Assembly (NCBI GenBank): GCA_963728205.1 | Contig: CAVSIV010000006.1 | Coordinates: 352,001-416,000 of the forward strand | Source: an uncultured Chloroflexia bacterium | GTDB lineage: Bacteria > Chloroflexota > Dehalococcoidia > UBA2979 | Length of the DNA stretch: 64,000 nt | Direction of reading: 5' to 3' | Shown here: in pieces, positions 1,651-52,955 of the stretch | Layout of the letters: each line of letters opens with the position of its first letter | Numbering within the stretch: position 1 is the first letter of the stretch | Notes under the pieces: generated by a model | Told to the model about the DNA's origin: nothing | What the model saw: the letters and a program-made list of their open reading frames with translations, nothing else | The model's database searches: none | Made by a program: the position numbers and the translations under genes

Positions 1651-1851
1651 CCTGACCCCCGGAAACCGATCCAGTCGCAAAGTAAGGAAAGCGGCTGCTG
1701 GACCTGAAGCGACTATTCATGGGTCATCCCGAAAGAGGAGAAGGGGGATCGCAAATAGACCGACTCAGATACTTCGGAAGCCACAGTTCCAAGGACTCCG
1801 AGCCCAAGACAGTTCTTTGAAACCACGATGTCCTGAATCCCACTACGCGAA

Positions 1852-2643: not shown

Positions 2644-3206
2644 TGATGACACGGTTCATGAGACTAGCAGCGCAACTACCCACTCTACAAGCGTCATTGG
2701 TAGCGCTCGCTCTCGCCGCGATTGTTGGATGGGTCGCATTCGGACACGCGACACACAGTGGCGCCGAGGGTGGAAATCACGGGGACGATCTGGCCCAGAA
2801 ACGGGCGAAACTCGAAATGACGCCCACGGATCTGTCCAAGGCCATCTTTAAAGATCGATCAACAGCACCGACGCCGCTACCAAACCTCTCACGGTACAAG
2901 AATGAACAATGGTACTTCGAAGTCTCGAACTACGATGATCGGGAAATCCCCGAGGCAGCTAAAGCTGCCAATCCAGCACGCAACCCCGCATGGCCTTCAT
3001 TCATACGATGCATGCAAAGCCATGGAATTGGGTCGGAGGTGGCGAACCCAGAAGCGGCCTCCCAACAGGATGTTAACAGCATCGTGCTAGCGGTGAACAA
3101 GTCAGGTCCATTCTACGTGGGAGCGACGAAAGGCCTCGAGTATCGAGCAACGCCAGCTTCGGATGCGTTCCTAGGATGCGAACCTCTGTTGTATCCGACA
3201 CGATGA
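2643..3206 (+). CDS. Membrane-anchored or secreted hypothetical protein, coupled to the upstream gene
   Basis: TAATG stop/start overlap; N-terminal hydrophobic helix; Cys pair FIRCMQSHG...FLGCEP. Confidence 0.7.
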   Translation: MMTRFMRLAAQLPTLQASLVALALAAIVGWVAFGHATHSGAEGGNHGDDLAQKRAKLEMTPTDLSKAIFKDRSTAPTPLPNLSRYKNEQWYFEVSNYDDREIPEAAKAANPARNPAWPSFIRCMQSHGIGSEVANPEAASQQDVNSIVLAVNKSGPFYVGATKGLEYRATPASDAFLGCEPLLYPTR

Positions 3207-3223
3207 AACGTGAAAAGTTCATG

Positions 3224-3254
3224 GGTGCCCGGCGAGAATACCTTGCCGGGCACC
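3224..3254 (+). terminator. GC-rich hairpin after the two-gene operon
   Basis: GGTGCCCGGCGAG-AATAC-CTTGCCGGGCACC; no U-tract. Confidence 0.5.
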
Positions 3255-3298
3255 GTCGCGTCTAGGATAAACCTAGCCTAGCACTCGAAGCGAGAACT

Positions 3299-3982
3299 AT
3301 GCAGACGGAGAACCCGAAGCACAACCGCTTGCTCACTCGGCTCTCACGAATCGTGCTACTGACTACGGTGGCGGCGGTCCTGGCGTCATTTATATCCTGC
3401 ACAGACTCCGGTGGGACTAACTCGAGTGAGCCGACCTCAATTCAAGCTACTCAAGCAACCAGAACTGCGCCAAGCGCAACTCTCTCCGTTGTCGGCGGAA
3501 GGAGCCGTCGAACCGGTATCATCAGCGTGGATCGAATCATTGATCTCATAGAGAGCAGGAGCGTGGATGGACTTCTCCAACTCGTGCAATATCGGAAGAT
3601 GGCCTGTAGTGCACGAACGGTCGACCAAAGAGCACCTGAATGTGCGGTTAACGAGCCTATTGGCACCCTGGTCGACTCCCTGCCGGCAGCGTCATGTGAA
3701 GGCTATTTCGCCCGCGATGCACGACCGTTGCTCGAACTTGTGGTCAGAAACGAACTCTACGCAGTTGCGAGGATGCCTCAACTTCCTGGCTTAGACCCGG
3801 TATTCCCAATCGGACAGTACCGAGTCGTTGTAGCCTCCAATTTGGCGGCGTCACCAACAGGTTGGGCGGTCTTGATTGAAGGCGACCGCATCGTTGGGCT
3901 TTGGTCGAGCTGCGGACATCCAAGGGAACTGCTTCGCATCGGAAACGACAACCCGGACCTGTTGCTTGGCCCGTTCGAATAA
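3299..3982 (+). CDS. Lipoprotein with the window's recurring 4-Cys domain
   Basis: Lipobox-like FISC, Thr/Ser linker, and a domain alignable with 17861-18574 and the C-terminus of 5024-6856. Confidence 0.75.
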   Translation: MQTENPKHNRLLTRLSRIVLLTTVAAVLASFISCTDSGGTNSSEPTSIQATQATRTAPSATLSVVGGRSRRTGIISVDRIIDLIESRSVDGLLQLVQYRKMACSARTVDQRAPECAVNEPIGTLVDSLPAASCEGYFARDARPLLELVVRNELYAVARMPQLPGLDPVFPIGQYRVVVASNLAASPTGWAVLIEGDRIVGLWSSCGHPRELLRIGNDNPDLLLGPFE

Positions 3983-4035
3983 GGCCATACCCGGCCGGAC
4001 TTTGCTGATCTCGACCTGCTCGAGCGGACCCCGGA

Positions 4036-4321
4036 TGAATCGCCCCGGGTTTGATGGAGACTCAGTTCATTGAGTCCCGGCCTCCGCCAGGACCTGCGCA
4101 GGGTAGTGGTTGGCCTCGTACTCGGCGGGTGGGACGTAGCCGAGGGCGCTGAAGAGGCGGCGGTGATTGTACCAGTCGACCCACTTCAGCGTGGCGAACT
4201 CGAGGTCTTCGAGGCCGCGCCACGGTCCTTGCTTACGCACCAGCTCGGTCTTGTAGAGCCCGTCCACCGACTCGGCCAGCGCGTTGTCGCAGTCGCCACG
4301 ACTGCCCACCGAGGTCACCAC
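4036..4321 (-). mobile_element. IS3-family remnant (terminal inverted repeat plus OrfB C-terminus)
   Basis: TGAATCGCCCCGG end resembles IS6110-type IRs; GDCDNALAES...YKTELV...WVDWYNHRRLFSALGYVPPAEYE is the IS3 integrase-core tail. Confidence 0.88.
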
Positions 4322-4359
4322 CCCCGCTTCCGCGAGTCAATCAGTCTAGCGGATCGAGA

Positions 4360-4852
4360 GGTGCCTTGCCGCTGCAGGCGTGTGGGCTCTTTCGGTCGCT
4401 CTTCTCCCTTTCGGGGCCGTCCCCGCGGCCCCTTGGGGCGCTCGGTGTCGGGAGGCTTCGGCTTGGGACTGCGGGGCTGCTCGCGTGCCTCGATGGCCGT
4501 GGCGTCTCGGGAGAGGTGGCCGATCAACCGGTCCTGGTAGGCCTTGCGGATCAACGTTTCGTGAACCCGCTCCGGCAACTGCGTCTGTGCAAACGCGTCG
4601 AACGCGCGGGAGAAGACGGATTCGCTCGGCACCTCGCGCTTGCGCTCCCAGCCGCAAATCCGTCGCAACGGCGCATCGGTTTGCAAGCGGTCCAGCAGCA
4701 TGCGCGTCGTCGGCATGTCGTAGACAGCTTTGGCCACAAAGGCACGGGCAATGGCCGCACGATCCTTCGGCGGGCGCCCGGGGACATGGAAGTGCGCGGG
4801 GTAAGGGGGGATCTGCTGCTCAACGCGGATGAGATCGAGGGTCTCTACCAAG
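4360..4852 (-). mobile_element. Truncated DDE transposase (DUF772-type N-terminus; IS5/IS1182-like)
   Basis: GRPPKDRAAIARAFVAKAVY...LRRICGWE...PSESVFSRAF...SRDATAIEARE; both the start and the catalytic C-terminus are missing. Confidence 0.8.
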
Positions 4853-5020
4853 GTAGCTCGTGACGCTCTCCGGCACGAAGCGCTCGAGCGCCCCGAGGTC
4901 GTAGGCCGTCGGGACCGAAGAGTCGTCCGAGGTGCACGCCGCGAGCAACGCAAAGGCAGCGACTAGGGCAAGCACAACGGCCCCGGCAATCCCACTTGCG
5001 ATTGCTCGTGGCTCCGGCAC
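4850..5020 (-). pseudogene. 5' remnant of a lipoprotein gene truncated by the IS
   Basis: Signal peptide with LLAAC lipobox, followed directly by transposase DNA at about 4850. Confidence 0.55.
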
Positions 5021-5023
5021 CGA

Positions 5024-6856
5024 TCACTCTCCCCAATCAGGGCCGCTGAGCCATGGGGCGTCGGCCAGCCTCGGCTGGAGGTCGAACGCCGCGCAGTCCC
5101 CGCCGCCGCCCGCACCAATCAAGCGGCCCTCCTCGTCGAAGCCGAGCCAGCCGGCCTTCTCGAAACCGAACAGAGCCGCGTATCGAGGTGCGTCCACCCC
5201 GAGGTCGACGACGCCAATCAGGTGATCGAGGAACATCGAGGCGTCGAAGCTCTTCACGCGGTACGTGATCGCGGGATCGATGAACGACGCCTGGTCCGGG
5301 CAGCCGCCGAACACAAGAGCGTCGACGAGCGTCCCGGCCTCGACGCCTGATGGGCAGGCCGGCGGGACCAGGATCCCTGGTGCGGGATCGACGACGCACG
5401 GTCCCTCGGTCGTCGTGAGCAGCGCGGCGAGCTGCGCGCCGTCGTGTGCCAGCGCGGCGCCGATCGCCGCCTGCATGTCGCCGGGCAGACGGTCGCGGCT
5501 CTCGGGCGATGATGTCGGAGCCGGGGTTGCAGTCGCCACCGGCGTCGGCGTGAACGGCGGCGTATCGGCGGTCACGCGCTCCGCCGACTCGGCGATGCGC
5601 CGCAGCTCCTCGAACGGCAGGGTGTCGCTCTCGAGCATGGCGACGAGTTCGCCCTCGCGCCAGGCGAGCCGCTCGACCCCACCTTCAGCGTGGTGGTAGC
5701 CGTCCTGGCCGCTGACGTCGACCGGCTCGCCGGCGCGGAGTGCGTCGGGCACGTCGACGCGCACGCGCTGCTGGAGCAGCGCGTAGCCTGCACCGCCCGT
5801 GGCGCTGAGCAGGCTCCAGGCGCCGACGAGCTCACATCCCGGGCCGGATTGCGCACCCGCCGATCCCCCCAGGAAGCCCTCGGGCGCGTACGAGGGCCGC
5901 AGGAAGCCGGCCGGCGCCGAGAACCCGGGTCCGCCCAGCGGGCCGGACGAACCGCCGCACTCCGCGGCGGTCATCGACTCGACCTTGCGAGCACCGGGCG
6001 GTGGCTCGAAGCGCAGCAAATCACCGTCAATCGCGATGCCGTGATCGAGAGTCGTCACTTCGAACAGCGCCGACTGGTGGCCTTCACCACCGTCAATCTC
6101 ATGACGCATGACGAACATCAGGTTGGTGTCGACCCAGATCCGCCCGACGCCGCCCGCCGTATGCTCTGGCGACGACGGCGTCGCCGTGCCGGCTGCAGAG
6201 CCGCCGGGCCGCGGCGTCGCGGTCCCGACGGGTTCGACCGCCTCGCCGTCGTCGCCCCGGGAAGGCGCGGTCGCGGTGGCCGCCGAGCCGGAGCGCCAGA
6301 CCGGGCGATACTCGATCACGCGTATCCCGCTCTGCTCGTCGTCGCGCAGGGTCACCTCGGCGCCGGTCTCGCGGTACCAGTCCGCGAGCTCCTCGACGCT
6401 CGATGCGTTGGCGGGACCGATGAGCGTGCTGAAGCCGGCGGGCGTCGGGAACATCCGCAGCTCCTCGGGGATCGGCGGGAGCCGCTGGTACGTGTCGGTG
6501 CGGCTGTCGTAGGTCCAGACCTCGTCGCCGTCGGCGACCGTGGTCACGGTCCCGGCCTCAAGCGGTGGATCGAGGTACTCGATCTCCCGCCGCCAGTGAT
6601 CACCGTCGACCTGCCACCAGCGCAGCCGCGTCTCGGTCGCCTCGCGCGAGCCGACCGCGATCTGCCAGCGCGGAGGCCGCGCGTCGTCCTCGACGCGGGT
6701 GGAGACCTCGGCATAGAAGCCCGCGTCGCCGGCGTCGCCCTGGGTGCAGGCGGTCGTGAGGACGACGAGCACCACCAGGAGCGCGCTGGCGAGCGCCACG
6801 CCGGGGCGTGCGAACGAGGGTCTCGATCCCACCACTGCCGGCTTCAGACGCGGCAT
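5024..6856 (-). CDS. Multidomain lipoprotein: LolA/RseB-like + DUF4367-like + 4-Cys domain
   Basis: TTAC lipobox; TVADGDEVWTYD, RIWVD and LLRFEPPPGA (LolA-like); LRPSYAPEGF...LAWRE...LPFEELRRIAES (DUF4367-like). Confidence 0.7.
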   Translation of the reverse strand: MPRLKPAVVGSRPSFARPGVALASALLVVLVVLTTACTQGDAGDAGFYAEVSTRVEDDARPPRWQIAVGSREATETRLRWWQVDGDHWRREIEYLDPPLEAGTVTTVADGDEVWTYDSRTDTYQRLPPIPEELRMFPTPAGFSTLIGPANASSVEELADWYRETGAEVTLRDDEQSGIRVIEYRPVWRSGSAATATAPSRGDDGEAVEPVGTATPRPGGSAAGTATPSSPEHTAGGVGRIWVDTNLMFVMRHEIDGGEGHQSALFEVTTLDHGIAIDGDLLRFEPPPGARKVESMTAAECGGSSGPLGGPGFSAPAGFLRPSYAPEGFLGGSAGAQSGPGCELVGAWSLLSATGGAGYALLQQRVRVDVPDALRAGEPVDVSGQDGYHHAEGGVERLAWREGELVAMLESDTLPFEELRRIAESAERVTADTPPFTPTPVATATPAPTSSPESRDRLPGDMQAAIGAALAHDGAQLAALLTTTEGPCVVDPAPGILVPPACPSGVEAGTLVDALVFGGCPDQASFIDPAITYRVKSFDASMFLDHLIGVVDLGVDAPRYAALFGFEKAGWLGFDEEGRLIGAGGGGDCAAFDLQPRLADAPWLSGPDWGE

Positions 6857-11654: not shown

Positions 11655-12851
11655 TCACGAGTTCGCGGCCTCGAGGTAGCCGTGCACGGCCGCCGCCACT
11701 CGCCCGAAGGTGTCCGGCGCCGCCCACCCGTTGGAGAGGATCGCCAGCACGTACGTGCCGAACGGCGCCCGGACAATCGCGACGTCGTGGGCGGCGCCCG
11801 GGTAGTCGCCGGTCTTGTTTCCGACGACGCTGCCGTCGTCGGAAATGCCGCTGGGGATGCGCGAGCGGATCCGCTGCTGCGCGAGCAGGTCGAACACCTG
11901 GGCGGCCACCGCGGGCGTCGGCTTCCCGCGCGCGATCGCCTCGAGCACGCGCGCCATGTCCGCCGCCGTGGTCGGCAGGGCCGAGTCGTTGACGCGGGTG
12001 TCGGCGGCCCCGAGCGCGCGCAGGTCGCGATCGACGTTGGCCCGGCCCACCACGTCGCCGACAAGGTTGGCGAGCGCGTTGTCGCTCGCGACGGTCATCA
12101 GGCGGATCGCGTCGGCGAGCGGGAGCGTCTCGCCCGCCTGCAGTCCCAGCGGCCCCATGGTGCCGAGGTCCTCGGCGGCGTACGTCGGGCGCAGCACCAC
12201 CTGCCGCGTCGAATCGAGCGTCCCCCGGGCCTGCTGCCACGCCGCCTCGACGAGGAGGGGCAGCTTGAACAGGCTGGCCGCGTAGTAGGTGCGGTCCGCG
12301 TCGACGGCGGCGTAGCGGTCGCTCCCGACGTCGATGGCGACCACGCTGATCTCGCCGGGCTCCCCGGCGATCGCATCGCGGATCGTCGTCTCGAGGGCGG
12401 GGTCTTCAGCGAGCGGGGGCTCGACCTGGACGGGCATCGGCGGTGCCGCGTCAGACACGTATCGGCAGTCGGCGCAGTCCGCTGCGCCCGCGGCGGTCGA
12501 TGCGCCGGGCGGGTCGGACGGGCGGCCCGGCGCGGACGCGGACCGCCTCGCGGGCGCGGGGCCGGCGGTGGATGCGAACGCGAGCGCTCCCGAGGGCGCC
12601 ACCGGAGTCGGCCGGGCAGGCGCCGCATCGGCCCCCGCGCGCGGCGTCGCGGACAGGTCCGTGTGGGACGCGGTGGTGACGGGGCCGCCGGACCCGCACG
12701 CGGCAATCGCGATCGCGAGCGTCGCCGTGACGGCCAGCATCCATCTCCGGAGCACGCGGTGGCACGTCCGCGGCCCCTCGGCGGCGACCCGTCGTGCGAC
12801 CCGGCCGTCGCCCGGGCGGCGCGCGGCGTCCCGCCGACCCGAAGGACTCAC
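11655..12851 (-). CDS. Class A beta-lactamase-family serine hydrolase, lipoprotein (start may be 12740)
   Basis: SLFK (SxxK), SDN and KTG motifs; IAAC lipobox. Confidence 0.88.
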   Translation of the reverse strand: MSPSGRRDAARRPGDGRVARRVAAEGPRTCHRVLRRWMLAVTATLAIAIAACGSGGPVTTASHTDLSATPRAGADAAPARPTPVAPSGALAFASTAGPAPARRSASAPGRPSDPPGASTAAGAADCADCRYVSDAAPPMPVQVEPPLAEDPALETTIRDAIAGEPGEISVVAIDVGSDRYAAVDADRTYYAASLFKLPLLVEAAWQQARGTLDSTRQVVLRPTYAAEDLGTMGPLGLQAGETLPLADAIRLMTVASDNALANLVGDVVGRANVDRDLRALGAADTRVNDSALPTTAADMARVLEAIARGKPTPAVAAQVFDLLAQQRIRSRIPSGISDDGSVVGNKTGDYPGAAHDVAIVRAPFGTYVLAILSNGWAAPDTFGRVAAAVHGYLEAANS

Positions 12852-14056
12852 GTGCCGCTCCCGGCCGGCGTCGCGACGGGAGGCAGTGGGGCCAGCGCGT
12901 GGAGCGCCGTCCGCACCGCGGCGGCCTCCTCGGTGGTGGCCGGCCGTGGCCGGTCCTCGACCGGATCGATGAAGGCGGGGCGCACCGTGAGCGCGGGCGG
13001 CGCGTCGGGCGCGAGCGTGACCACCGCCACCGCGGTCTCGAACGGCGCACGCCCGAGCGTGGCGAGGTCACCTGTGTCGAGGTCGAACACGAAGTTGCCG
13101 AGGCTGTAGAGGATGAGGCCTCCGCGATAGCGCTCCCACGGCTGGAGCACGTGCGGGTGCGCGCCGATCACGAGGTCCGCGCCGGCGTCAATCGCGAGGT
13201 GCGCGAGCGAGCGCTGGCGCTGGCTGGGCACCGCCTGGTACTCGTAGCCGGCGTGGAGCATGACGACGACATAATCCGCTCGGGCCCCCGCGGCGGTGAT
13301 CGCGGCGGCCATCCCATCGGAGGCCGCCGCGACGCCCGGCCCGTCCGCGGTCGCGACGCGCGTCTGCCCGATGTCGTCGAAGCCGAGCATCGCGACGGTT
13401 GCGCCGCGCGCGTGGAGCAGGAGGGGCGCCGCGGCCGCCGCCGCCGAGTCGCCGGCGCCGAACCAGCCGACGCCGACGCGGTCCAGCGCGGCCTCGGTGT
13501 CGGCAAGCCCGGACGCGCCGAAGTCGTAGGAGTGGTTGTTCGCCAGCGTCACCGCGCTGAAGCCGCCGGCGACGAGCGCGTCGGCGAGCGGCGGCGGCGT
13601 GCGGAACGTGTATTCCTTGGCGGCCGGCGTGCCGCGGTCGGTGAACGTGCCCTCGAGGTTGCCGACGACGAGGTCCGCGCCCGCCAGCAGAGCGCGCACG
13701 CGCGCGAACGGATAGTCGACGCCGCGGTCGGCCATGAGCATGGTGACGTCGCGCGCGAACATCAGGTCGCCCACCGCGGCGAGCGTGACCACCGGCGGCG
13801 CGACCGCGGTCGGCGCCGCCGCGACTGCGGCGGTCGCGGGCGTGGTCGCATGCACGATGCCGACGGTCGGCACGCCCGCCCCGTGTCCTTGGAGGGCTGG
13901 GCCGCAGCCGAGGACCACGAGAGCGGCGCCGGCGAGCACGAGCATCGCTGCGTGCCCGCGACGCAGTGGCCAAGGCCACCCGCGGACCCTGGCGGCGGCT
14001 CGCGCGGGCGGCCGGGTCCCGGGGCAGGTGATGGACGGAGGCGTCGCCGCGGTCAC
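12848..14056 (-). CDS. CapA (PGA_cap) family metallophosphoesterase
   Basis: AAVGDLM, GNLEG, LANNHSYDFG, MLHAG, IGAHPHVLQ and YSLGNFVFD motifs. Confidence 0.92.
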   Translation of the reverse strand: MTAATPPSITCPGTRPPARAAARVRGWPWPLRRGHAAMLVLAGAALVVLGCGPALQGHGAGVPTVGIVHATTPATAAVAAAPTAVAPPVVTLAAVGDLMFARDVTMLMADRGVDYPFARVRALLAGADLVVGNLEGTFTDRGTPAAKEYTFRTPPPLADALVAGGFSAVTLANNHSYDFGASGLADTEAALDRVGVGWFGAGDSAAAAAAPLLLHARGATVAMLGFDDIGQTRVATADGPGVAAASDGMAAAITAAGARADYVVVMLHAGYEYQAVPSQRQRSLAHLAIDAGADLVIGAHPHVLQPWERYRGGLILYSLGNFVFDLDTGDLATLGRAPFETAVAVVTLAPDAPPALTVRPAFIDPVEDRPRPATTEEAAAVRTALHALAPLPPVATPAGSGT

Positions 14057-14910
14057 TCCGCGCTGGCCGCGAGCTGCTGCGGCGCGACCCGGTAGACCGA
14101 TCGGCCCAGGTCTTCGTCGACCCACGCTCCGTCGACGCCGCGCCGCCGGGTGGTTCCCACGGTCATGAGCTCGCCACGCCGGACCGGCGCGGTCACGAGG
14201 AGTTGCACGCGCGAGGCGAGGGGGCGCGGGCTCCGCAGCGTCGCCGTCACACCCGCGCCGTCGAGGGCGACCGAGAGCCGCACGGGCCACGGGTGCGGGT
14301 TCGAGAACCGCAGATCGCGGTAGGCGTACTCGATCGTGGCGTCGCGTCCGAGCAGGTAGTACCGCTCGTCGCCGTAGGTATCGACGCTGTGACAGTGCCG
14401 CTCCTCGATGCGCAGGTCGCCGAGCAGCGCGGCGTTGTAGACGACCGTCGAGAGCAGGCAGGTCGACCCGCCAACCTCGCTCACGAGCCGGCCGCCGACG
14501 AGCGCCGCGCCGGGCCGGTACCCGCGTCGGGCGGTCGGCTCGCCGGCGAGCCGCCAGAGCGACCACGTCTCCCCGGGCGCGAGCAGGGTGCCGTCGAGCG
14601 CCGCGCCCATGACCCGCAGGTTGTGGCGCTTGTCGGCGGCGAAGCGCGCCTGCCCGGGGTAGTCGTGGACCGGGAGCCGATACGAGGCGATCTCGTGGGG
14701 CCAGCCGTTCGCGCCGTCGCGCCCCGCGGCGAACCGAACGCCACGGTCGTGCCACCAGCGGCGTGCGACCGCGAGGCGCAGTCGCCAGCGGCGCGGCACC
14801 CATCGTCGCGCGAGCCGGCGAGCGGCGCCCGTCGTCGCGCGGAGACGCGCGATCCCGCCGCGAACGACCGCGCGACGCGTCGAGCCGGCATGCGGCGAGA
14901 TTCGCACCAT
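14053..14910 (-). CDS. VanW-family protein (start uncertain)
   Basis: LDGTLLAPGETWS...GGSTCLLSTVVYNAAL...ERHCHS...GRDATI...DLRFSNP. Confidence 0.88.
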   Translation of the reverse strand: MVRISPHAGSTRRAVVRGGIARLRATTGAARRLARRWVPRRWRLRLAVARRWWHDRGVRFAAGRDGANGWPHEIASYRLPVHDYPGQARFAADKRHNLRVMGAALDGTLLAPGETWSLWRLAGEPTARRGYRPGAALVGGRLVSEVGGSTCLLSTVVYNAALLGDLRIEERHCHSVDTYGDERYYLLGRDATIEYAYRDLRFSNPHPWPVRLSVALDGAGVTATLRSPRPLASRVQLLVTAPVRRGELMTVGTTRRRGVDGAWVDEDLGRSVYRVAPQQLAASAE

Positions 14911-15115
14911 CGGTGGGCGCTCCTGGGCCTCGCCCGCCGCCGCCCCTGGCGGCCGTCGTTGGTCCCCACGTGTCGGGACCGCACTCCTTGGACGCTCGAC
15001 CGGGTCCGGCGGTTCCTGCTGCAAGCGACCGCAGTCGTCGGTCCGGACCAGCGATCCAGCGCACGCGCGCCGGGATATGACGATGACACCGCGATGTGGC
15101 GGCTGGCGCTGCCCG

Positions 15116-15143
15116 CAAATCATGTACGCTGCGGCGTACGTCA
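15116..15143 (-). promoter_or_regulatory. 28-bp motif containing GTAC-N8-GTAC, copy 1
   Basis: 22/28 match to the reverse complement of 16740-16767. Confidence 0.55.
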
Positions 15144-15167
15144 GGGCCGACCAAATCACCCGGAACC

Positions 15168-16712
15168 ATGCCGCCGCTCCTGGATCGCACCCTCATCGAT
15201 GCCGCGCGCGAAGCCATGCGCCGCGCCTACCCGGACCATCCGTGGCGCGAGCCATACCGGGAGGCGGTGGCGTGTGCGTACCAGGCGGGAGATCTCGCGG
15301 CGGTCGCGGAGCTGAGCGTCCTCGCGGCCGCGCACCTCTCCGGCGAGGCGCGCATCGCGGAGGCCATCGCGGAGGTGGAGCACGGGCTGGCGCTCGCCGC
15401 CGGCCATCCGGCGTCGCAGGCCCACCTGCTCCGCGCGCGTTCGAGCCTGGAGCTGTTTGCCGACGACCCCACGGTGGCGCTGCACACGCTCGAGCAGGCC
15501 GCCGCGGTCGACGTTCCGGACCCCGGCGCCCGGGATCGCGCGGACCGCGCGATTCGCGAGGTGATCGCCCGCTGCGTCTGCCTGCGGGCGGTGCGACCGG
15601 AGGAGTTCGACGCCGTGCGGCTGCTCGCCGAAGGCACGGACTTCGACTGGCTCGCGACCGGCCTCAAGCAATGGGTGGCCCCGTACCTGCTGGCATCCGG
15701 CCATCCTCGCGAGGCCGGGCCGTGGGCCGAGTCGCTCACGACCCACGCACGTGCGCGGGGGTCCAGCTGGCGCATGGCGGATGCGGCGGCGCAGGTGCGG
15801 GAGGTGAGCGCGGCGCGCGGCGAGCGCCCCGCGCCGGCGGGTGCCGACCTGCTGCCGGGCGGGACGAACGGTCCGGCAATCTGGGCCACGGCGGCGCTCG
15901 ATCTGCACCAGGCGCTGATCCGCGCGGACGCCGCCGCAGCCGACGAGGCGCTGGGCCGCCTGACCCCGGGGCGGATCCTCGCGCCGCCGGCACTGGGTCA
16001 GCCGCGGCGGGCGTTCGAGGCGCTGGTGGTCGCGCTCGACGGCGGGCGTGCGCCGCCGCTGGAGTGCCCCGAACAGCCGAGCCTCCTCAACCTGAGCAGC
16101 GTGCTTGCCGCCGCGGAAGCCGTCGCCGTCGGCGGCTCGCAGGAGGACGCGGTCCGCTGGACGCGGTGGCTGGACGGACGGCTCCCCGACTCGATTGAGA
16201 GTTGCCCCGACTGGCCGGTGTCCGTGCATCGCATCCGGGCGCTGCTCGCCGCGCGCGCGGGCGACGTCCGCCACGGCGTCGCCCGCATGCGGCTCGCCGT
16301 CGCCTGGGCGGACGCCGCCCGGCAGCCCGTGGAGGCGGCGATCGCGCGGGTGCAGCTCGCCGAGCTGATCGCCGTCGCGCCTCGCGCGATCGCCCGCCGG
16401 CAGTGGCTCACGATCCGCGACGACGGACGGTCCGGGTGCCGGGCGCTGGCGCTGCCATACCCGCTGCACGCGCACATCGCGGCGTCGGCCGCGGCGCTCG
16501 GGCGCTTCGACTGCGAGCGGCCCCAGCTGGCGCCGCGCGAGATCGAGGTGCTGGGGCTGCTCGCGGAAGGCGAGACGTACCAGCGGAGTGCGGCGCGGCT
16601 GGGGCTGAGCTGGCGGACGGTGCAGACGATCGCTCACCGCGCCTACCAGAAGCTCGGCGTCGCAAATAAGACGCAGGCGATTAGCGAGGCGCGCGAGCTG
16701 GGTCTGCTGTGA
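15168..16712 (+). CDS. Large LuxR-family transcriptional regulator (helical N-terminus, C-terminal HTH)
   Basis: LAPREIEVLGLLAEGET...LGLSWRTVQTIAHRAYQKLGVANKTQAISEARELGLL. Confidence 0.85.
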   Translation: MPPLLDRTLIDAAREAMRRAYPDHPWREPYREAVACAYQAGDLAAVAELSVLAAAHLSGEARIAEAIAEVEHGLALAAGHPASQAHLLRARSSLELFADDPTVALHTLEQAAAVDVPDPGARDRADRAIREVIARCVCLRAVRPEEFDAVRLLAEGTDFDWLATGLKQWVAPYLLASGHPREAGPWAESLTTHARARGSSWRMADAAAQVREVSAARGERPAPAGADLLPGGTNGPAIWATAALDLHQALIRADAAAADEALGRLTPGRILAPPALGQPRRAFEALVVALDGGRAPPLECPEQPSLLNLSSVLAAAEAVAVGGSQEDAVRWTRWLDGRLPDSIESCPDWPVSVHRIRALLAARAGDVRHGVARMRLAVAWADAARQPVEAAIARVQLAELIAVAPRAIARRQWLTIRDDGRSGCRALALPYPLHAHIAASAAALGRFDCERPQLAPREIEVLGLLAEGETYQRSAARLGLSWRTVQTIAHRAYQKLGVANKTQAISEARELGLL

Positions 16713-28529: not shown

Positions 28530-28892
28530 TCAGACGCGCTCGGCGACGCCGGCGCGCACCGCTTCGAGCAGCGCGTCCAGGTCGAATGGCTTGGCGACGA
28601 AGCTCGTCGCGCCGACGAGGCGCGCCGCCTCCTCGGGGTTCCGCTGGGCGGTCATCACGATCAGCGGAGTGCGCACGCCGCGGGCCTCGAGCGCCTGCGC
28701 GAACTCGCGCCCGTCCAGGACCGGCATGCGCATGTCGAGCAGGACCAGGTCCGGCGTGGGGTCGCCCGCGATCACCTCGAGCGCGTGCCTGCCGTCGGCC
28801 GCGACGGTGACCGTGTAGCCCTCGTCCTGCAGCAGGTCGCGCACGACCTCGCGGATGGTGACGTCGTCGTCGACGACGAGCACGTGGGTCAC
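28530..28892 (-). CDS. Response regulator receiver
   Basis: VLVVDDD...LLDMRMP..DG...MTA...KPFD. Confidence 0.92.
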   Translation of the reverse strand: MTHVLVVDDDVTIREVVRDLLQDEGYTVTVAADGRHALEVIAGDPTPDLVLLDMRMPVLDGREFAQALEARGVRTPLIVMTAQRNPEEAARLVGATSFVAKPFDLDALLEAVRAGVAERV

Positions 28893-29045
28893 GGACACCC
28901 CCTCGAGCGACCGCTCGGCAGCGCCCGACCGACGATACCGGCGGGGCCGCGTAGCGGGACTCGCAGACCTCACAGAATCGTGACAATCGGGCGCGCGCCC
29001 TGCGTGCCGGGAGCGGCGCGCGGGCGCTGTCCGGGCGGGGGCGGG

Positions 29046-40290: not shown

Positions 40291-40782
40291 ATGTACGGAT
40301 CGCGAGAGAGCGTCTTCCCGCGCGTGCTGCTCGCGCTGGTCGCGCTCGCAGGCGTGGCCCTGGTGGCGGTGATCGCGTTCAACGCGGGCGCCGCGCACGG
40401 CGGCGTCGCGGACACCGCGGCCGCCGGCGCGCGTGACTGGCGGTGGCACGGCGGGCCGGGGTTCGGCCTGTGGTTCCTGTTCCCGCTCGGCTTCGGGCTG
40501 CTGTTCTTCGTGTTGCTGTTCGGGCTCGTGCGCGCGGCGTTCTTCGGCTTCGGCCCGCGAAACGGCGGCCCCTGGGGCAGCGGCCCGGCCGGCGGCTGGG
40601 ACGACGGCCCGGGCGCAGGGCGGCGCGACGCGCTGCGACGCGGCTTCGACGAGTGGCACCGCGAGGCACACCGCGACGCGACGTCCGCGGTCCCGCCCCC
40701 GTCCACCGCCGCATCCGAGAGCGCGCCCGGCCCGGCGGACCGGCCCGCGGCGAGCGGCGGCGAGCCCGGGGGCGAGCGCTAG
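40291..40782 (+). CDS. Membrane protein preceding the two-component system
   Basis: AAGGGG RBS; two hydrophobic segments; FDEWHREAH. Confidence 0.75.
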   Translation: MYGSRESVFPRVLLALVALAGVALVAVIAFNAGAAHGGVADTAAAGARDWRWHGGPGFGLWFLFPLGFGLLFFVLLFGLVRAAFFGFGPRNGGPWGSGPAGGWDDGPGAGRRDALRRGFDEWHREAHRDATSAVPPPSTAASESAPGPADRPAASGGEPGGER

Positions 40783-40792
40783 GATCGGCGGC

Positions 40793-41494
40793 ATGAAGAC
40801 GATCCTCGTCGTCGACGACGAGCCGAAGATCGTGGCGATCGCCCGCGACTACCTGCGGCAGGCCGGCTTCGACGTGGTCGCGGCCGCCGACGGCGAGGCG
40901 GCGATCGCCACGGCGCGCGAGCGACGGCCCGACCTGGTCGTGCTCGACCTCGGGCTGCCGCGGATCGACGGGCTCGACGTCGCGCGCACGCTGCGCGCCG
41001 GCGGCGACGTCCCGATCGTCATGCTCACCGCGCGCGACGACGAACTCGACCGCGTGCTCGGCCTCGAGCTCGGCGCCGACGACTACATCACGAAGCCGTT
41101 CAGCCCGCGTGAGCTCGTCGCGCGGGTGCGCGCCGTGCTGCGGCGCAGCGAGCGCCAGGCAGCCGCGCCCGCCGGCGACGACGGCGCCGAGCGCATCGTC
41201 GCCGGCGACGTCGTGCTCGACGTGGAGCGCATGCGCGTCGCCGTCGCGGGCCGGCCGGTCGACGTCACGCCGACCGAGTTCGCGCTGCTCGCGACGCTGG
41301 CGCGGCGGCCGGGGCGCATCTTCACGCGGTCGCAGCTGCTCGACGCGATCCACGGCGTGGCGTTCGAGTCCTACGAGCGCGCGATCGACACGCACGTGAA
41401 GAACCTGCGCCGCAAGCTCGAGCCCGAGCCGCACCGGCCGCGCTACCTGCTGACGGTGCACGGCGTCGGCTACCGCTTCGCCGACGATGACTGA
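40793..41494 (+). CDS. OmpR/PhoB-family response regulator
   Basis: ILVVDDE, LDLGLP, GADDYITKPF, TVHGVGYRF. Confidence 0.96.
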   Translation: MKTILVVDDEPKIVAIARDYLRQAGFDVVAAADGEAAIATARERRPDLVVLDLGLPRIDGLDVARTLRAGGDVPIVMLTARDDELDRVLGLELGADDYITKPFSPRELVARVRAVLRRSERQAAAPAGDDGAERIVAGDVVLDVERMRVAVAGRPVDVTPTEFALLATLARRPGRIFTRSQLLDAIHGVAFESYERAIDTHVKNLRRKLEPEPHRPRYLLTVHGVGYRFADDD

Positions 41495-42641
41495 GCCCAC
41501 CGGGCCGGGCCGCGGCGAGATCCCGTCGCCTCGTCGCCGCGGTCCGCCGCACCGCCCGCCGTGGTGGCCCGAGGGCGAGGTGTGGCCGCCGCGCAGCGGA
41601 CTCGGCGGGCCGCCGCCGATGGTGTTCGCGCGTCGCATCGGGCGCGTGCTGCTCGTGGCCGCGCTGCTCGCCGTCGCCGGCCTCGTCGCGACGGCGGTGG
41701 CGTGGCATCGCGCCGGCCCCGCCGCCAGCGCGGCGGTGCTCTTCGTCTCGCTCGTGCTGCTGGTACTGCTCGCGGGAGCGTCGTTCGCGGCGTTCGGCGC
41801 GCGCCGGATCGCGGTGCCGCTGGAGGACCTCGCCGGCGCGGCGCAGCGCGTGGCCGCGGGCGACTACGCGGCGCGCGTGTCGGCGCGGCCGTGGGGGCCG
41901 CCGTCGCTGCGCGGGCTGATGCGCGCGTTCAACACGATGGCCGAGCGCCTGGAGGCCGACGCCGGCCAGCGCCGCCGGCTGCTCGCGAACACGAGCCACG
42001 AGCTGCGCACGCCGCTGACGAGCCTGCAGGGCGAGCTCGAGGCGATGCTCGACGGCGTGCACCCTGCCGACGCCGCGCACCTGCGCAGCGCGCTCGAGGA
42101 GTCGCGCGTGCTGGCACGCCTCGTCGACGATCTGCGCACGCTGGCGCTCGCCGAGTCAGGCGGGCTGCGGCTGCACCCGGAGCCGGTCGACGTCGCCGCG
42201 CTCGCGCGCGAGGCGGCGGCGGGGCTGGAGGCGACGGCCACGGCGGCCGGGGTGCGGGTGGCGGTGGAGGGTCCGGCGGGCGACGGGGCGGCGGTGGTGA
42301 GCGCCGACCCACTGCGGGTGCGGCAGGTGATCGTGAACCTCGTGGCGAACGCCCTGCGCTACGCGCCGCGCGACAGCGCGGTGACGGTGCGCGTCGAGGG
42401 GCTCGCCGGCCGCGTCGCGGTGAGCGTGCAGGACGCGGGGCCGGGGATCGCGCCGGAGGTGCTGCCGCGCGCGTTCGAGCGCTTCGCGCGCGGGGCGGAC
42501 TCGGACGCCGGCGGCGGGTCGGGGTTGGGGCTCGCGATCGCGCGCGAGCTGGTGGAGGCGCACGGCGGCACGATCGTCGCGGAGCGGCCGCCGGAGGGCG
42601 GGACGCGCGTGCGGTTCGAGCTGCCCGCGGAGGTCGCGTAA
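41487..42641 (+). CDS. HAMP-domain sensor histidine kinase (BaeS-like)
   Basis: Two TMs, AFNTMAERL, SHELRTPL, NLVANA, GSGLGLAI. Confidence 0.95.
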   Translation: MTEPTGPGRGEIPSPRRRGPPHRPPWWPEGEVWPPRSGLGGPPPMVFARRIGRVLLVAALLAVAGLVATAVAWHRAGPAASAAVLFVSLVLLVLLAGASFAAFGARRIAVPLEDLAGAAQRVAAGDYAARVSARPWGPPSLRGLMRAFNTMAERLEADAGQRRRLLANTSHELRTPLTSLQGELEAMLDGVHPADAAHLRSALEESRVLARLVDDLRTLALAESGGLRLHPEPVDVAALAREAAAGLEATATAAGVRVAVEGPAGDGAAVVSADPLRVRQVIVNLVANALRYAPRDSAVTVRVEGLAGRVAVSVQDAGPGIAPEVLPRAFERFARGADSDAGGGSGLGLAIARELVEAHGGTIVAERPPEGGTRVRFELPAEVA

Positions 42642-48515: not shown

Positions 48516-49057
48516 CCACCTACCAGTTCACGCTAATGGTCGAAGGTCCCGACCTCCAGGACGAGGCGCATGCTTCCGCGCTCTTCGCGGCCGGGTGCGA
48601 CGACGCGACCGTCGGGCGCGTCGGCACCGTGCAGTACCTCGACTTCGACCGCGAGGCCAAGACGTTCGCGGACGCCGTGTTCGAGGCGACGGCGGCGGTG
48701 GAGTCCGCGGTGCCCGGCGCGCGCGTCGTGCACCTCGAGCCGGACGACCTGGTCACGATGGCGGAGATCGCGGAGCGCACGGGCCGCACGCGCGAGAGCG
48801 TCCGACTGCTGATCGCCGGCGAGCGCGGCGGCGGCGACTTCCCGGCGCCGGCCACGCACCTCAAGCGCCGGCAGCGGCTGTGGCGCTGGCAGGAGGTCGC
48901 GGCGTGGTTCGCGCGTCATTCGGGCGCGGCGGAGCCGGGCGACGATCCGCAGCGCGCGCGCTTCACCACCGCGTTCAACGCCGGCCTCACGCTGCGCGCC
49001 GTCCACGACGACGTCCCGGCGTACGACCTGCGACGCATCCGCGACCTCGCGAAGTAG
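48512..49057 (+). CDS. HicB-like + HTH DNA-binding protein (putative antitoxin)
   Basis: ALFAAGCDDA...FDREA; DLVTMAEIAERTGRTRESVR...FPAP...LWRW; ATGA overlap. Confidence 0.65.
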   Translation: MTTYQFTLMVEGPDLQDEAHASALFAAGCDDATVGRVGTVQYLDFDREAKTFADAVFEATAAVESAVPGARVVHLEPDDLVTMAEIAERTGRTRESVRLLIAGERGGGDFPAPATHLKRRQRLWRWQEVAAWFARHSGAAEPGDDPQRARFTTAFNAGLTLRAVHDDVPAYDLRRIRDLAK

Positions 49058-49133
49058 GTCTGGCGGAGCGGCGCCGGATCGCTCCGGCGCGGTGGACGGG
49101 GTAAATCGGCCGTCGGCGATCTCGGCTGCGGTC

Positions 49134-49907
49134 ATGCCCGGCCGCGGACGCCCGCCGCACCCCGACATCCTCACGCCGGCCGAGCGCCGCGTGCTCGACG
49201 AGGTGCGCGCCGGCCGCACGAACCCGGAGATCGCGGAACGGCTCGAGGTGAGCGTGAACACCGTGCGCTACCACGTCTCGAACATGCTGGCGAAGCTCGG
49301 GCTGCCCGACCGCCGCGCGCTGGCGGCGTGGCGCGAGTCGCCGGACCGGCGGCGGCCGTGGGCGGCGCTCGCGGCGGGGCTGATCGGCCGCGCGGCGGCA
49401 GCGGCGGCGGTCGTCGGAGCCGGCGGGATCGTCGCACTCGTCCTCGTCGCCGGGCTGCGCGGGGCACGGCACCCGTCCGCCACGACCACTCCCACGACCA
49501 CGCTGAGCCCCGCGGTCGTGGAGCAGGCGAGCCGGGCCTCGGACGTCCTGCCGGCCGCGGACGGCAGGCGACTGCCGACCTTCTTCGAGTACACGGTGCG
49601 CCCCGGCGACACGCTCGACGGCGTCGCGACCACATTCCACATCCCCGCAGGCGACGTCCAGCAGAGCAACCCCGCAGTCGGATCCGACCCGACTGCCGCG
49701 TTGACCACCGGCGTGACGCTGCGCATCCCCGCCGTGTCGGGCGTCCTCTACCAGGTGCGTCCCGGCGACACGCTCGCGTCGATCGCGCGCGCGTACGGCG
49801 TCGCGGAGCGCGACATCGTCGCCTTCGTCGCGAACGGGCTGAGCGGCGGGGCCGCGCCGGAACCCGGGTCGCTCATCCTCATCCCGGGCGGCCGCGAACC
49901 GCGCTAG
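49134..49907 (+). CDS. LuxR-HTH / TM / 2x LysM one-component regulator
   Basis: RGRPPHPDILTPAE...EIAERLEVSVNTVRYHVSNMLAKL; TM; YTVRPGDTL and YQVRPGDTLASIA. Confidence 0.88.
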   Translation: MPGRGRPPHPDILTPAERRVLDEVRAGRTNPEIAERLEVSVNTVRYHVSNMLAKLGLPDRRALAAWRESPDRRRPWAALAAGLIGRAAAAAAVVGAGGIVALVLVAGLRGARHPSATTTPTTTLSPAVVEQASRASDVLPAADGRRLPTFFEYTVRPGDTLDGVATTFHIPAGDVQQSNPAVGSDPTAALTTGVTLRIPAVSGVLYQVRPGDTLASIARAYGVAERDIVAFVANGLSGGAAPEPGSLILIPGGREPR

Positions 49908-49970
49908 TCGCGAGACGGCGCCGCAGGATGCGAACCCTCTTCGCCTGCGAGCGAGCGCCCCAGCCGCCCC

Positions 49971-51375
49971 TCAGCTGCCCGCGGCCGCGCACGGGCACGT
50001 CGTCACCGTCGGCGTGATGCCGCCGACGTAGAGGATCCTCCCCACCTGGTCGGCGACGACGGACAACGGCGAGCCGTCCGGCGCCGTCGCCGACACCTGC
50101 CACGACGTGAAGGACGACATCGCATCGCCGACGGCGACGTGACGGGGAAGACCGCGCGGACAGCCCGGGGGCACGACCGCATTGGGGCGTTCGGCGTCGA
50201 AGCGCAGCCGGAACGTCCCCGTGTCCAGCTCAACCGTCAGGGTGTGAGCGGCCGCGTCGGCGACGCACGTCTCGCTTCCCGCTGCGAGCGCGACGAGGCC
50301 GTCGGCCACGTGGATTCGCGACCGGCAGACGCCGCCGGCGCACTCGGCCGTCGCCGGCCAATTCCCGATCGTCTGTCCGAGCGGCCCGAGCTTCGTCGCC
50401 CGGCTGAGGTCGAGGAACTCGCCGGTGTCGGTCGCCATCACGCCCTCGGGCAGGGGCGCCGGGCGGACGAACAGATGGCCGCGGTTGTCGACCGCCACCG
50501 GGTACCGGTGCCCCGCGGCGTCCGTGAGGTCGATGCCGATCTGCGGCCGCGGGTCGTCGATCTGCGTCGGATAGATGGCGACGGTATCGCGCCCGGTCGT
50601 CAGGAAGTTCGCGTTGCTGCCCGACTCCCGGGACGGCCAGGCAGACCAGAATCTCGAGAGCGAAGGTCCGCCCCGCGGAGTTGAAGTGCAGCAGCAGCCG
50701 CCCCGGCCACGCGCCGGTCACGGCCGGCGCCGATCCTGCCGCCCAGAGCGGACCGGCGGTCGCGTCGAACCGGATGTAGCCGGCGCGCGCGAGCCGGACC
50801 GCGGTGAATCCCGCGCGGTAGGACGTCTCGGCCGCCGGGAAGGGGTTGTAGGAGAGGGCGAAGGCCGCCCCCGTGTCGATGAAGCCGGCGGCGGTCAGAT
50901 TCTGCGGGGAAAGCGCGCGATAGCTCCCGGACTGCGCCAGGGGTATCGACGCGGACGCCGTCGCGAACGCGACGGCCGTGGGCGTGGAGCCGTTCGCAGC
51001 GACGGGTCCCGGGGAGGAGCGGGCAATGCGCATCCCGACGACCACCACCGCGGCGGTCACGCCGAGCGCCGCCGTTGCGACCGCGACTCGCCCCAGCACG
51101 CCGGCCGCGAGCGCCACACCGGCCCACTCGCGCCCTCGCGCGCGACGCTCTGTGGGCTCGCCACGCCAAGCGGCGAGCGCGTAACGGTCGGCGCATCCGA
51201 GCTTCGCCAGCATGCTGGAGACGTGCGTCTTTACCGTCGGCAACGCGACGCCGAGGCGGTCCGCGATCTCGGCGTTCGAGAGCCCCTCGCGCAGCGGCTC
51301 GAGGACGCGCCACTCCGCCGGCGTCAGCACGTCGGGATGGGGAGGGCGCCCGCGCGCGTGTCGTCGCCAGTCCAT
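49971..51375 (-). CDS. LuxR-HTH / TM / extracellular 'CPC-tail' domain regulator (frameshift near 50645)
   Basis: RGRPPHPDVLTPAEW...TVKTHVSSMLAKL; TM; C-terminus LYVGGITPTVTTCPC. Confidence 0.8.
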
Positions 51376-51404
51376 GCAACGAGCCTACGAGCGCGACCGG
51401 TGAA

Positions 51405-51659
51405 TTACCTCATACCTCGGCGGCGCTGGTCGGCTGCGTTGGCGGCACGCTCGGCCCGACGGATCCGCTCGGTCGACGGGAGGCGGCCGCGATACGCGCC
51501 GCGCAGTGACTCGATCGCATGCTCGGGGAGCGGTCGAATGACGACTCGATCGCCCACGTCGACCATCAAGACGCGGTCGGCGTTCCACCGCGCCCGTGTG
51601 GGCGCCGGAAGCGATACTCGTCCATTCGAAGACACCTTCATGACGTAGCTGGCGATCAC
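51405..51659 (-). CDS. AbrB/MazE-type antitoxin, orphan
   Basis: KVSSNGRVSLPAPTR...VVIRP...SLRG; no toxin follows. Confidence 0.75.
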   Translation of the reverse strand: MIASYVMKVSSNGRVSLPAPTRARWNADRVLMVDVGDRVVIRPLPEHAIESLRGAYRGRLPSTERIRRAERAANAADQRRRGMR

Positions 51660-51741
51660 GGGAGCACTCCCTCGTATGCCCGTGATCATCGCACCCCCGG
51701 TCCTGCGGATGGATTCCGCCGCGCACATGCGCCACCGCTCG

Positions 51742-52518: not shown

Positions 52519-52709
52519 GGCCCGCGGCGCCGTCGGTTTCCGAACGGCGGCCCGTCAGCGCGACCGGGATCCGTTGATCCGTGCCTGCATGACACCCGGG
52601 GCGCTCCAGCGGCGGCGAGAGCGAATGGACGGACGCCACCCGGCTGAATCGGGCGGCGTCCACCATTCCCTGTGACACGCCGTCCGCGTCGGTTGGCGCA
52701 GCCGTCCAG

Positions 52710-52955
52710 TCAGTTGGGAAGGCCGTTGGCTGAGCCACCGGCCCAGTCGGGGATCCCATTCGCCGAGCCGCCAACCCAGTCGGGGATGCCGTTGGCTGAG
52801 CCGCCAACCCACTCGGGGATGCCGTTGGCCGAGCCGCCTACCCACTCGGGGATGCCGTTGGCCGAGCCGCCATTCGCGGAGCCCTGAGCCAGTGCCGGCG
52901 CCGCCGTCGCCAGCGTCAACACCGCTGCCAGCACAATCACAACGAGCCTCTTCAC
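52710..52955 (-). CDS. Small secreted precursor with tandem 11-aa repeats
   Basis: GGAGGAG RBS; signal peptide MKRLVVIVLAAVLTLATAAPALA; GIP(E/D)W(V/A)GGSAN x4; 33-bp DNA repeats with synonymous variation. Confidence 0.85.
   Translation of the reverse strand: MKRLVVIVLAAVLTLATAAPALAQGSANGGSANGIPEWVGGSANGIPEWVGGSANGIPDWVGGSANGIPDWAGGSANGLPN

Follow-up and report, generated by a model that had tools for sequence, protein, structure and literature searches.

Two convergent genes, A and B, in a stretch of 64,000 nucleotides from an uncultured Chloroflexia bacterium (assembly GCA_963728205.1, contig CAVSIV010000006.1, positions 352,001 to 416,000; the whole stretch, with a GC content of 72.8%, is hereafter called the window) are probably paralogues in a lineage-specific family of bitopic one-component regulators of the Dehalococcoidia, mainly the Tepidiformaceae. 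A family of membrane-tethered LuxR regulators had been proposed in an earlier interpretation made without database searches (hereafter the sequence-only reading), and the family is real: its members combine a conserved N-terminal LuxR module with one predicted membrane segment and with C-terminal domains that are unrelated to each other (coordinates in Table 1).

The conserved head and the predicted membrane segment

Both proteins start with ...RGRPPHPD(I/V)LTPAE, with RGRPPHPD as the N-terminal arm of gene A, and continue into a LuxR-type helix-turn-helix (HTH) domain, as had been noticed from the letters; the matches to the Pfam family GerE lie above the curated cut-off in both genes. The motif (R)xALAAWR, which had been counted as an additional shared module, is the fourth helix of the GerE domain. 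As the homologues begin MPGRGRGRPPHPD, ATG 49134 is preferred over the upstream GTG 49092 as the start of gene A. A sequence search against the PDB matched the HTH of gene A to chains of NarL, VraR, DosR and GerE (E 1.7e-7 to 3e-5), and the AlphaFold2 model of gene A contains four helices at residues 15-65, with values of 92-98 in the predicted local distance difference test (pLDDT). The modelled head of the homologue P0177 superposes on the DNA-binding domain of NarL in its DNA complex (1je8_A) with a TM-score of 0.80 by target and a root mean square deviation of 0.8 over 55 columns at 40% identity, which is the only good Foldseek match of this model to the PDB. Look-alikes of the head in the ESM Atlas reached a best score of 0.84, below the meaningful level, and neither gene A nor gene B reaches the cut-off of any NCBIfam model. 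The head is a true member of the NarL/GerE fold and differs from these domains by the added N-terminal GRPxHPD arm and by having no receiver. Indeed, the receiver domain PF00072 is absent from genes A and B and from the Pfam families matched by 78 aligned members. Thus, the database name 'response regulator transcription factor', which some members carry, is wrong. GerE was matched in all 78 members at E <=0.001, and the positions G5, R6, T14, P15, E17, R25, V44, K54, R60 and W66 are invariant among them, while P7 is nearly so.

The head could also be understood as a module resembling sigma region 4, which contacts RNA polymerase or a partner at the membrane in the manner of an anti-sigma factor or a split sigma factor; the family would then not be of the one-component type. 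Sigma70_r4_2 was also matched in 64 of the 78 members (best E 7.4e-9), and a cytoplasmic N-terminal domain followed by one transmembrane (TM) helix and a variable ectodomain is the layout of anti-sigma factors as well. However, GerE is matched far more strongly than the sigma profile and, by genes A and B, above the curated cut-off, the modelled fold can be superposed on DNA-bound NarL as described above, and in a soluble form of the family (P0025, P0114-P0122) the head is fused to a cytoplasmic glyoxalase/VOC domain without any membrane segment, which is a typical one-component layout. We consider this explanation very unlikely. The proteins do not resemble sigma factors of the extracytoplasmic function (ECF) type with C-terminal extensions either, as Sigma70_r2 was unmatched, the region-4-type matches lie at or below the cut-off and the protein starts at the HTH.

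The family was delimited by several searches. With gene A as the query, 25 proteins (P0002-P0026) were alike only over the N-terminal 70-110 residues, and the remaining matches were LysM hydrolases or ordinary LuxR proteins with a C-terminal HTH; the Streptomyces matches belong to the latter and were rejected as family members. Residues 1-246 of gene B yielded 172 matches, and among the best 120 of these the top-ranked proteins have no receiver domain, while from P0123 on nearly all are response regulators with a receiver. Scanning one genome per species with the pattern P[PR]HPD[VI]LTP identified 428 stretches, of which 407 were confirmed as copies; all figures given below for loci rest on the 74 that were kept from the best 80 of these. 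Nearly all of the 74 loci belong to Dehalococcoidia/Tepidiformaceae; their titles name metagenome-assembled genomes of Dehalococcoidia, Tepidiformaceae, Chloroflexi/Chloroflexota or Anaerolineaceae, with the exception of one 5-kb contig labelled Gemmatimonadetes. The copies are clustered within genomes, and the 2.0-Mb contig CBDBPS010000002.1 carries eight family genes and one remnant. At about 5786-6000 of locus L041 on this contig (position 5804), a complete family promoter and the first 17 codons (MERNRRGRPRHPDVLTPAEWRVL) are followed by an unrelated frame (...YPFESRFYDAPDGHRVHFVDEGEGS), and the 17-codon stretch is a family-gene remnant fused upstream of another gene.

The single TM helix that the sequence-only reading had assigned to both proteins agrees with a hydrophobic stretch after ALAAWR, predicted by hydropathy. 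A segment with a Kyte-Doolittle value of at least 1.6 starts between residues 77 and 124 in 76 of the 78 members, and exactly one such segment is present in 65 of them. On average, the 15 residues before the segment contain 2.0 lysines or arginines vs 0.78 after it, a bias that is expected for an N-in/C-out orientation. Hydropathy and charge bias thus point to a cytoplasmic head and an ectodomain outside the cell. The six conserved cysteines of the gene B type and the LysM, LRR, PD40, RCC1, Kelch and LolA-like domains of other members were also counted in favour of an extracytoplasmic location.

Exchanged ectodomains and the interrupted gene B

Most of the tails of the 78 members scanned have no Pfam match. 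The others contain LRR_1 (seven members), PD40 (five), RCC1 (three), LolA-like (two), Kelch (one) and LysM domains, the last in gene A only. The diversity behind the supposed interchangeable sensors is borne out; the LysM tail is a one-off, found in 1/78. For instance, P0006 and P0007 are identical at 89 of 96 N-terminal residues (93%), after which nothing is alike over more than 300 residues. We compared heads of 66 residues with the attached tails for the 74 members that have at least 100 tail residues (2,701 pairs). Among the 56 pairs whose heads reach an identity of 85% or more, 15 had no detectable tail similarity, and tails were shared in 16 pairs whose heads are only 55-70% identical. 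Near-identical heads with unrelated tails, and the reverse, indicate that parts have been exchanged rather than having diverged gradually. The C-terminal domain, which is predicted to lie outside the cell, has been exchanged repeatedly.

The tail of gene A matches PF01476 in two stretches (58.2 bits vs a cut-off of 20.9; E 7.7e-16), and in the PDB sequence search the LysM pair matched YaaH and a cell-wall-binding endopeptidase, the LysM chains at E 3.9e-7. The ectodomain was poorly modelled by AlphaFold2 (pLDDT 36-78) because the alignment did not contain any other LysM member. Judged from the domain type, the repeats most likely bind a glycan containing N-acetylglucosamine such as peptidoglycan. 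A plausible ligand exists, since Tepidiforma has a peptidoglycan layer beneath its S-layer according to the available part of its description (PMC10284905).

Gene B had been described as the same head joined to a Cys-containing domain with a CPC tail. Both parts are present, but they do not form one open frame, and the sequence-only reading had crossed a +1 frameshift without noticing it. The first frame from 51375 becomes Arg-rich and out of frame after about residue 239 and runs to a stop at 50230, while the frame with the ...TTCPCAAAGS tail is open from 50717 to 49971 and has no ATG, GTG or TTG before 50498. The frameshift was placed by homologues, as the last aligned residues in the first frame (GRTFA) end at 50659 and the first in the second frame (SGSNANFL) begin at 50624. 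In addition, the codon position with high GC content at third positions (GC3) shifts its phase near 50600-50650. The first frame aligns with 44% identity to residues 6-227 of the intact homologue P0059 (493 aa), and the second frame to its residues 295-484 (E 4e-24); P0177 (439 aa) likewise holds both halves in one open reading frame (ORF).

Either gene B is a pseudogene or its interruption stems from an indel in the assembly. Truncation is no rarity in the family, because seven of the 86 family genes likewise stop no more than 160 residues from the GRP motif and have no ectodomain (L026, L073, L018, L072 (3004), L030, L031 and L074). This suggests that truncations or frameshifts (or assembly indels) such as that of gene B are frequent in the family. 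Gene B could also consist of two genes, a truncated regulator and a secreted protein that is separately translated from GTG 50498. Indeed, the representative library contains a 175-aa protein, P0176, that is identical to the ORF from 50498, which was evidently predicted by gene callers, and some relatives of the ectodomain have no HTH (P0179-P0181, P0185). However, about 40 codons upstream of 50498 can be aligned to homologues in this frame and have the GC3 of a coding sequence, yet they contain no start codon, the 175-aa ORF would have neither a signal nor an anchor, and the intact homologues P0059 and P0177 join the two halves. We therefore regard two separate genes as most improbable.

The gene B ectodomain has 76 relatives at E <=0.001 among 1.84 billion representatives, and nearly all of them are matched up to, or almost up to, the C-terminus of the protein. 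Scanning 44 of the 75 non-self hits revealed an N-terminal GerE domain in 20, of which 19 exceed the curated cut-off. Among the relatives without GerE that were read, P0179, P0180, P0181 and P0185 have a membrane anchor only, P0183 begins inside a truncated HTH, and P0202, P0207 and P0212 carry a divergent HTH but no GRP arm. The domain contains six conserved cysteines and ends with CP(P)C-x-x-G. The AlphaFold2 model of P0177, which was built from 45 sequences, has a mean pLDDT of 86.3, with most of residues 121-439 above 90, and shows the ectodomain confidently as all-beta. A Foldseek comparison of this domain with the PDB gave no match at E <=0.001, and the best TM-scores were 0.16 by query and 0.19 by target (ShyA, 6u2a). 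The ectodomain is thus modelled as a disulfide-rich all-beta domain without a solved relative.

The shared promoter and its possible reader

The sequence-only reading had pointed to a common motif with identical spacing in front of both genes, which holds: GGTAAATC-N14-TCGGCT-N6-ATG is found at 49100-49136 (+) and GGTAATTC-N14-TAGGCT-N6-ATG at 51409-51373 (-). The window contains GGTAAWTC three times vs 0.21 expected, a count not attained in any of 100 shuffles. The third copy, GGTAATTC at 2624-2631 (-), is due to chance, as it is located in a + strand ORF inside a low-GC island and the spacing downstream of it does not fit. The element of gene B overlaps the TAA stop codon of an upstream MazE-like ORF (51405-51728, -), with the stop inside the GGTAATTC core. 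The match of this ORF to MazE_antitoxin (MazE/AbrB-type) is weak and below the curated cut-off (E 5.5e-4), and its GC3 signal is also weak, so that the ORF is uncertain.

The motif is also present in other members. We aligned 85 upstream regions iteratively to obtain a position weight matrix (PWM), and 84 of them score at least 6.2 bits, L057 being the exception. The consensus tCGGaTGaGGTAATTCgccc has 14 informative positions with an almost invariant AA, and it describes an oriented 14-bp element (GGrTGrGGTAAWTC) at a fixed position upstream of family genes. For the downstream part, 86 family gene starts were inspected (two in the window and 84 in the loci, including one duplicate due to the overlap of L010 with L041). 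In 58 of them TANNNT stands at -12 to -7, in 16 it lies one base further from the start and in three it lies two bases further, which gives 77/86 with the box 6-8 nt before the start. The same geometry occurs at 1.6% of all 4,445 ATG trinucleotides in this DNA. Gene A is among the nine family genes that have no TANNNT box 5-8 nt ahead of a start codon. A Shine-Dalgarno-like word precedes the proximal start in 13 of the 86 genes. Of the 41 other candidate genes in the window, only two have the family -10 geometry at any candidate start and 24 have a Shine-Dalgarno-like word; the leaderless geometry is thus a family trait and not a habit of the genome. The leaderless transcripts supposed earlier fit this promoter geometry, from which they are predicted.

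The element is largely confined to the family. The regular expression GG[TG]AA[ATC][TC][CT]-N13-15-TANNNT gave 48 matches in 966,020 bases; 44 of them are found upstream of a family gene at a distance of no more than 100 nt, while 20 shuffles gave 1-6 matches each. With a PWM threshold of 16 bits, both matches in the window and 71 of the 74 matches in the loci precede family genes (0-3 in shuffles). The three others precede another paralogue (L007, starting MQWF) or are orphan copies in L012 (1455) and L024 (5068). Each promoter has a single copy, the orientation and distance of which are constant, and the element was never found on the opposite strand within -300 to +100 of family genes. Scanning 48900-51600 revealed neither sigma-70 consensus promoters nor intrinsic terminators.

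We propose that these parts work together as follows. A short, basic and proline-rich arm (R-G-R-P-P/R-H-P-D) and the four-helix GerE/LuxR domain would lie in the cytoplasm, followed by a basic juxtamembrane stretch, the single membrane-spanning helix and the C-terminal domain outside the cell. Binding of an outside ligand would alter how the tethered head binds DNA, either through oligomerisation or through proteolytic release, as in receptors of the ToxR/CadC type; such ligand control is suggested by analogy to these receptors. At the promoter, a TANNNT box of the sigma-A type, placed 6-7 nt ahead of the start codon, would give rise to a leaderless mRNA, and the 14-bp element would replace a TTGACA-like box in the -35 region. 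The position of the element matches that of a -35 element or of a class II activator site, and the absence of a TTGACA-like box fits an activator-dependent promoter. Moreover, the conservation of head and element at every copy suggests self-recognition. We give somewhat less than even odds to the idea that the element is the family's own binding site and that it serves positive auto- and cross-regulation. Autoregulation and heterodimer cross-talk, both put forward in the sequence-only reading, are inferred.

Several points weigh against this proposal. The element has neither dyad symmetry nor a second copy, in contrast to most operators of the LuxR type. Identical recognition helices occur with the GGTAAATC, GGTAATTC and GGGAAACC variants; co-variation between helix and element was hence rejected and lends no support to direct binding. 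In about 480 kb, no non-family gene with the element was found, and no neighbouring gene is conserved at the family loci. The PWM scores are inflated because the upstream regions that were scored had also served to train the matrix, a problem from which the regular expression count and the exclusivity test are free. The -10 box of gene A, TCGGCT, has a C for the key A at position 2, which is usually essential in -10 hexamers. As gene B is frameshifted in addition, neither window gene is certain to yield a full protein. Finally, the topology is a prediction from hydropathy, and AlphaFold2 models residues 75-104 of gene A as helical with low confidence. As to possible targets, the largest clusters of non-family ORFs (at 14 and 10 of 75 loci) were rejected, as they are low-complexity, Arg/Gly-rich and look like wrong frames.

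Some of these observations would equally suit a separate factor, an alternative sigma factor or another activator, that reads the element, so that the sensors are co-expressed as a regulon and each acts on other sites. A single, oriented element that is never inverted and keeps a fixed distance to the -10 box, that takes the place of a TTGACA-like -35 box in a region devoid of sigma-70-type promoters and that does not co-vary with the recognition helix is what such a factor would leave. The element also stands only upstream of family genes or their remnants and hence is not a site for controlling other nearby genes. However, TANNNT is a -10 box of the housekeeping rather than the ECF type, the 14-bp element is longer than a usual -35 box, no sigma factor gene is conserved beside family genes or present in the window, and self-recognition remains the simplest explanation for a conserved head with a conserved element at every copy. 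A separate reader is nearly as probable as self-recognition.

A more specific version of self-recognition can be built on the N-terminal arm. AT-hooks bind the minor groove of AT tracts with an R-G-R-P core, which the invariant G-R-P arm presumably resembles, a likeness that we take as a lead only. In a genome with 73% GC, the core of the element is an invariant AA, and G5 and R6 of the arm are invariant. No paper that links AT-hooks to LuxR proteins was found in the literature search. The tethered head, which is homologous to sigma region 4, might read the 14-bp element by placing the HTH into the major groove and the GRP arm into the minor groove of AAWT, thereby supplying the -35 recognition at its own leaderless promoter. 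In that case, the paralogues, of which there are at least eight per genome, would be surface sensors that activate one another in a network, and recombination directly before the membrane helix would supply new ectodomains. Taken as a whole, we regard this scheme as rather unlikely.

Comparison with known regulators and surroundings in the window

The ToxR/CadC/TcpP type is the best model for how the family may work. These regulators have an N-terminal cytoplasmic DNA-binding domain, one TM helix and a C-terminal extracytoplasmic sensor and act without a phosphorelay, as is predicted for the family proteins. However, the DNA-binding domain of the ToxR type is an OmpR-type winged helix (Trans_reg_C), whereas the family has a tetrahelical GerE/LuxR HTH. 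As neither gene A nor gene B matches Trans_reg_C at E <=0.1 in Pfam and the head is GerE, the proteins would work like ToxR without being members of the ToxR family. Moreover, ToxR-type genes are few per genome, whereas at least eight copies with exchanged ectodomains can occur in a genome of the family.

Three further groups come close, and the statements on them refer to the available excerpts of the reports. BguR (and SusR) of the Bacteroidota are one-component regulators with a single TM helix and a GerE domain (bioRxiv 10.64898/2026.01.10.698779). BguR shares with the family the combination of GerE, one TM helix and an extracytoplasmic sensor (the latter two predicted in the family) without kinase or receiver. 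However, the order is opposite, with a signal peptide, a periplasmic beta-propeller/Y_Y_Y sensor, the TM helix and, at the C-terminus, GerE, whereas GerE is located at residues 12-68 in our case and there is no Y_Y_Y match. BguR also occurs as one copy beside its target polysaccharide utilisation locus, and the excerpt does not describe a shared leaderless promoter. The LuxR regulators DadR, HcdR and CadR of the Coriobacteriia, which have 10-12 TM helices (PMC9734109), resemble the family in being membrane-embedded, in having many paralogues per genome and in combining conserved DNA-binding domains with very divergent sensors, and autoregulation of DadR was suggested as possible (PMC9734109). 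They differ by their 10-12 N-terminal TM helices, the C-terminal HTH, the lack of a globular ectodomain and the phylum, while the family proteins have one hydrophobic region after an N-terminal HTH. The same report lists 83 TM LuxRs, nine of which have fewer than ten TM helices (PMC9734109), and any of these nine could be a similar protein with a single TM helix and an N-terminal HTH. Lastly, a protein with an N-terminal LuxR HTH followed by a PAS domain has been described, and the inverted order was called rare (bioRxiv 10.64898/2026.03.15.711900). Like the family, it has the HTH first and the sensor second, but it is soluble and has neither a TM helix nor an ectodomain.

A literature search, in which subscription journals were not covered, found no paper describing the combination of an N-terminal GerE domain, one TM helix and an ectodomain. 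The claim of an undescribed signalling family thus stands for the architecture, but membrane-spanning LuxR one-component regulators as such are already known.

Membrane-integrated one-component regulators are the simplest way of carrying a signal across the membrane to the DNA, and to our knowledge only few types exist. How the tethered regulators ToxR and CadC find their DNA is still debated. The family would add a LuxR-headed, ToxR-like type and provides an unusually clear natural series of domain swaps, with one head and more than six kinds of ectodomains. It also has a short, portable and family-specific leaderless promoter, and it offers modular parts from which sensors could be built. 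Furthermore, the family could explain how the Tepidiformales, with their peptidoglycan wall and S-layer, sense their surroundings.

Table 1. Features of genes A and B and of their promoters (nucleotide positions in the window)
Feature	Position	Strand	Basis or remark
Gene A	49134..49907	+	ATG 49134 to stop; 257 aa plus stop (translation)
Gene A, GerE/LuxR HTH	aa 12-64, nt 49167-49325	+	Pfam GerE, E 9.6e-16, 57.6 bits vs cut-off 23.5
Gene A, hydrophobic segment	aa 77-108, nt 49362-49457	+	Hydropathy; directly after ALAAWR/HTH
Gene A, two LysM repeats	about aa 153-199 and 206-251, nt about 49590-49730 and 49749-49886	+	Pfam
Gene B, whole	51375 down to 49971	-	Same head as gene A; split by +1 frameshift
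Gene B, 5' part, first frame	50659..51375	-	aa 1-239: RGRPPHPD arm, HTH, hydrophobic segment, start of ectodomain
Gene B, GerE HTH	aa 15-68, nt 51333-51172	-	Pfam, E 8.2e-14, 51.4 bits vs cut-off 23.5
Gene B, hydrophobic segment	aa 86-118, nt 51120-51022	-	Hydropathy; after ALAAWR
+1 frameshift interval	50625..50658	-	Alignment limits of both frames; GC3 phase switch
Gene B, 3' part, second frame	49971..50624	-	Cys-rich ectodomain including stop codon, ends TTCPCAAAGS
Promoter element of gene A	49092..49111 (20-nt PWM window); core GGTAAATC 49100-49107	+	PWM 20.4 bits
-10-like hexamer TCGGCT of gene A	49122..49127	+	6 nt before ATG
Promoter element of gene B	51398..51417; core GGTAATTC 51409-51402	-	PWM 18.2 bits
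-10 hexamer TAGGCT of gene B	51382..51387	-	6 nt before ATG

Other features of the window are listed here as observations in their own right. An ordinary pair of an OmpR-type response regulator and a HAMP/HisKA histidine kinase (40373-42638, +) and a stand-alone receiver (28533-29045, -) indicate that the genome also has classical two-component systems. Two cell-wall-related ORFs, a protein with a class A-type Beta-lactamase2 domain (E 1.4e-40) and a VanW-like protein (E 2e-33), are encoded at 11658-15192 (-), about 35 kb from the LysM regulator. The low-GC island mentioned above (1837-4000) has a GC content of 54-57% vs about 73% elsewhere, contains two + strand ORFs without a Pfam match (1852-2643 and 2643-3206) and adjoins an ORF with a DUF772 transposase domain (4318-4962, -); it is probably horizontally acquired DNA. 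Finally, a small ORF of 81 aa (52692-52955, -) has a signal-peptide-like start and no Pfam match, and it contains 4.6 tandem copies of a 33-nt unit coding for GGSANGIPEWV repeats.

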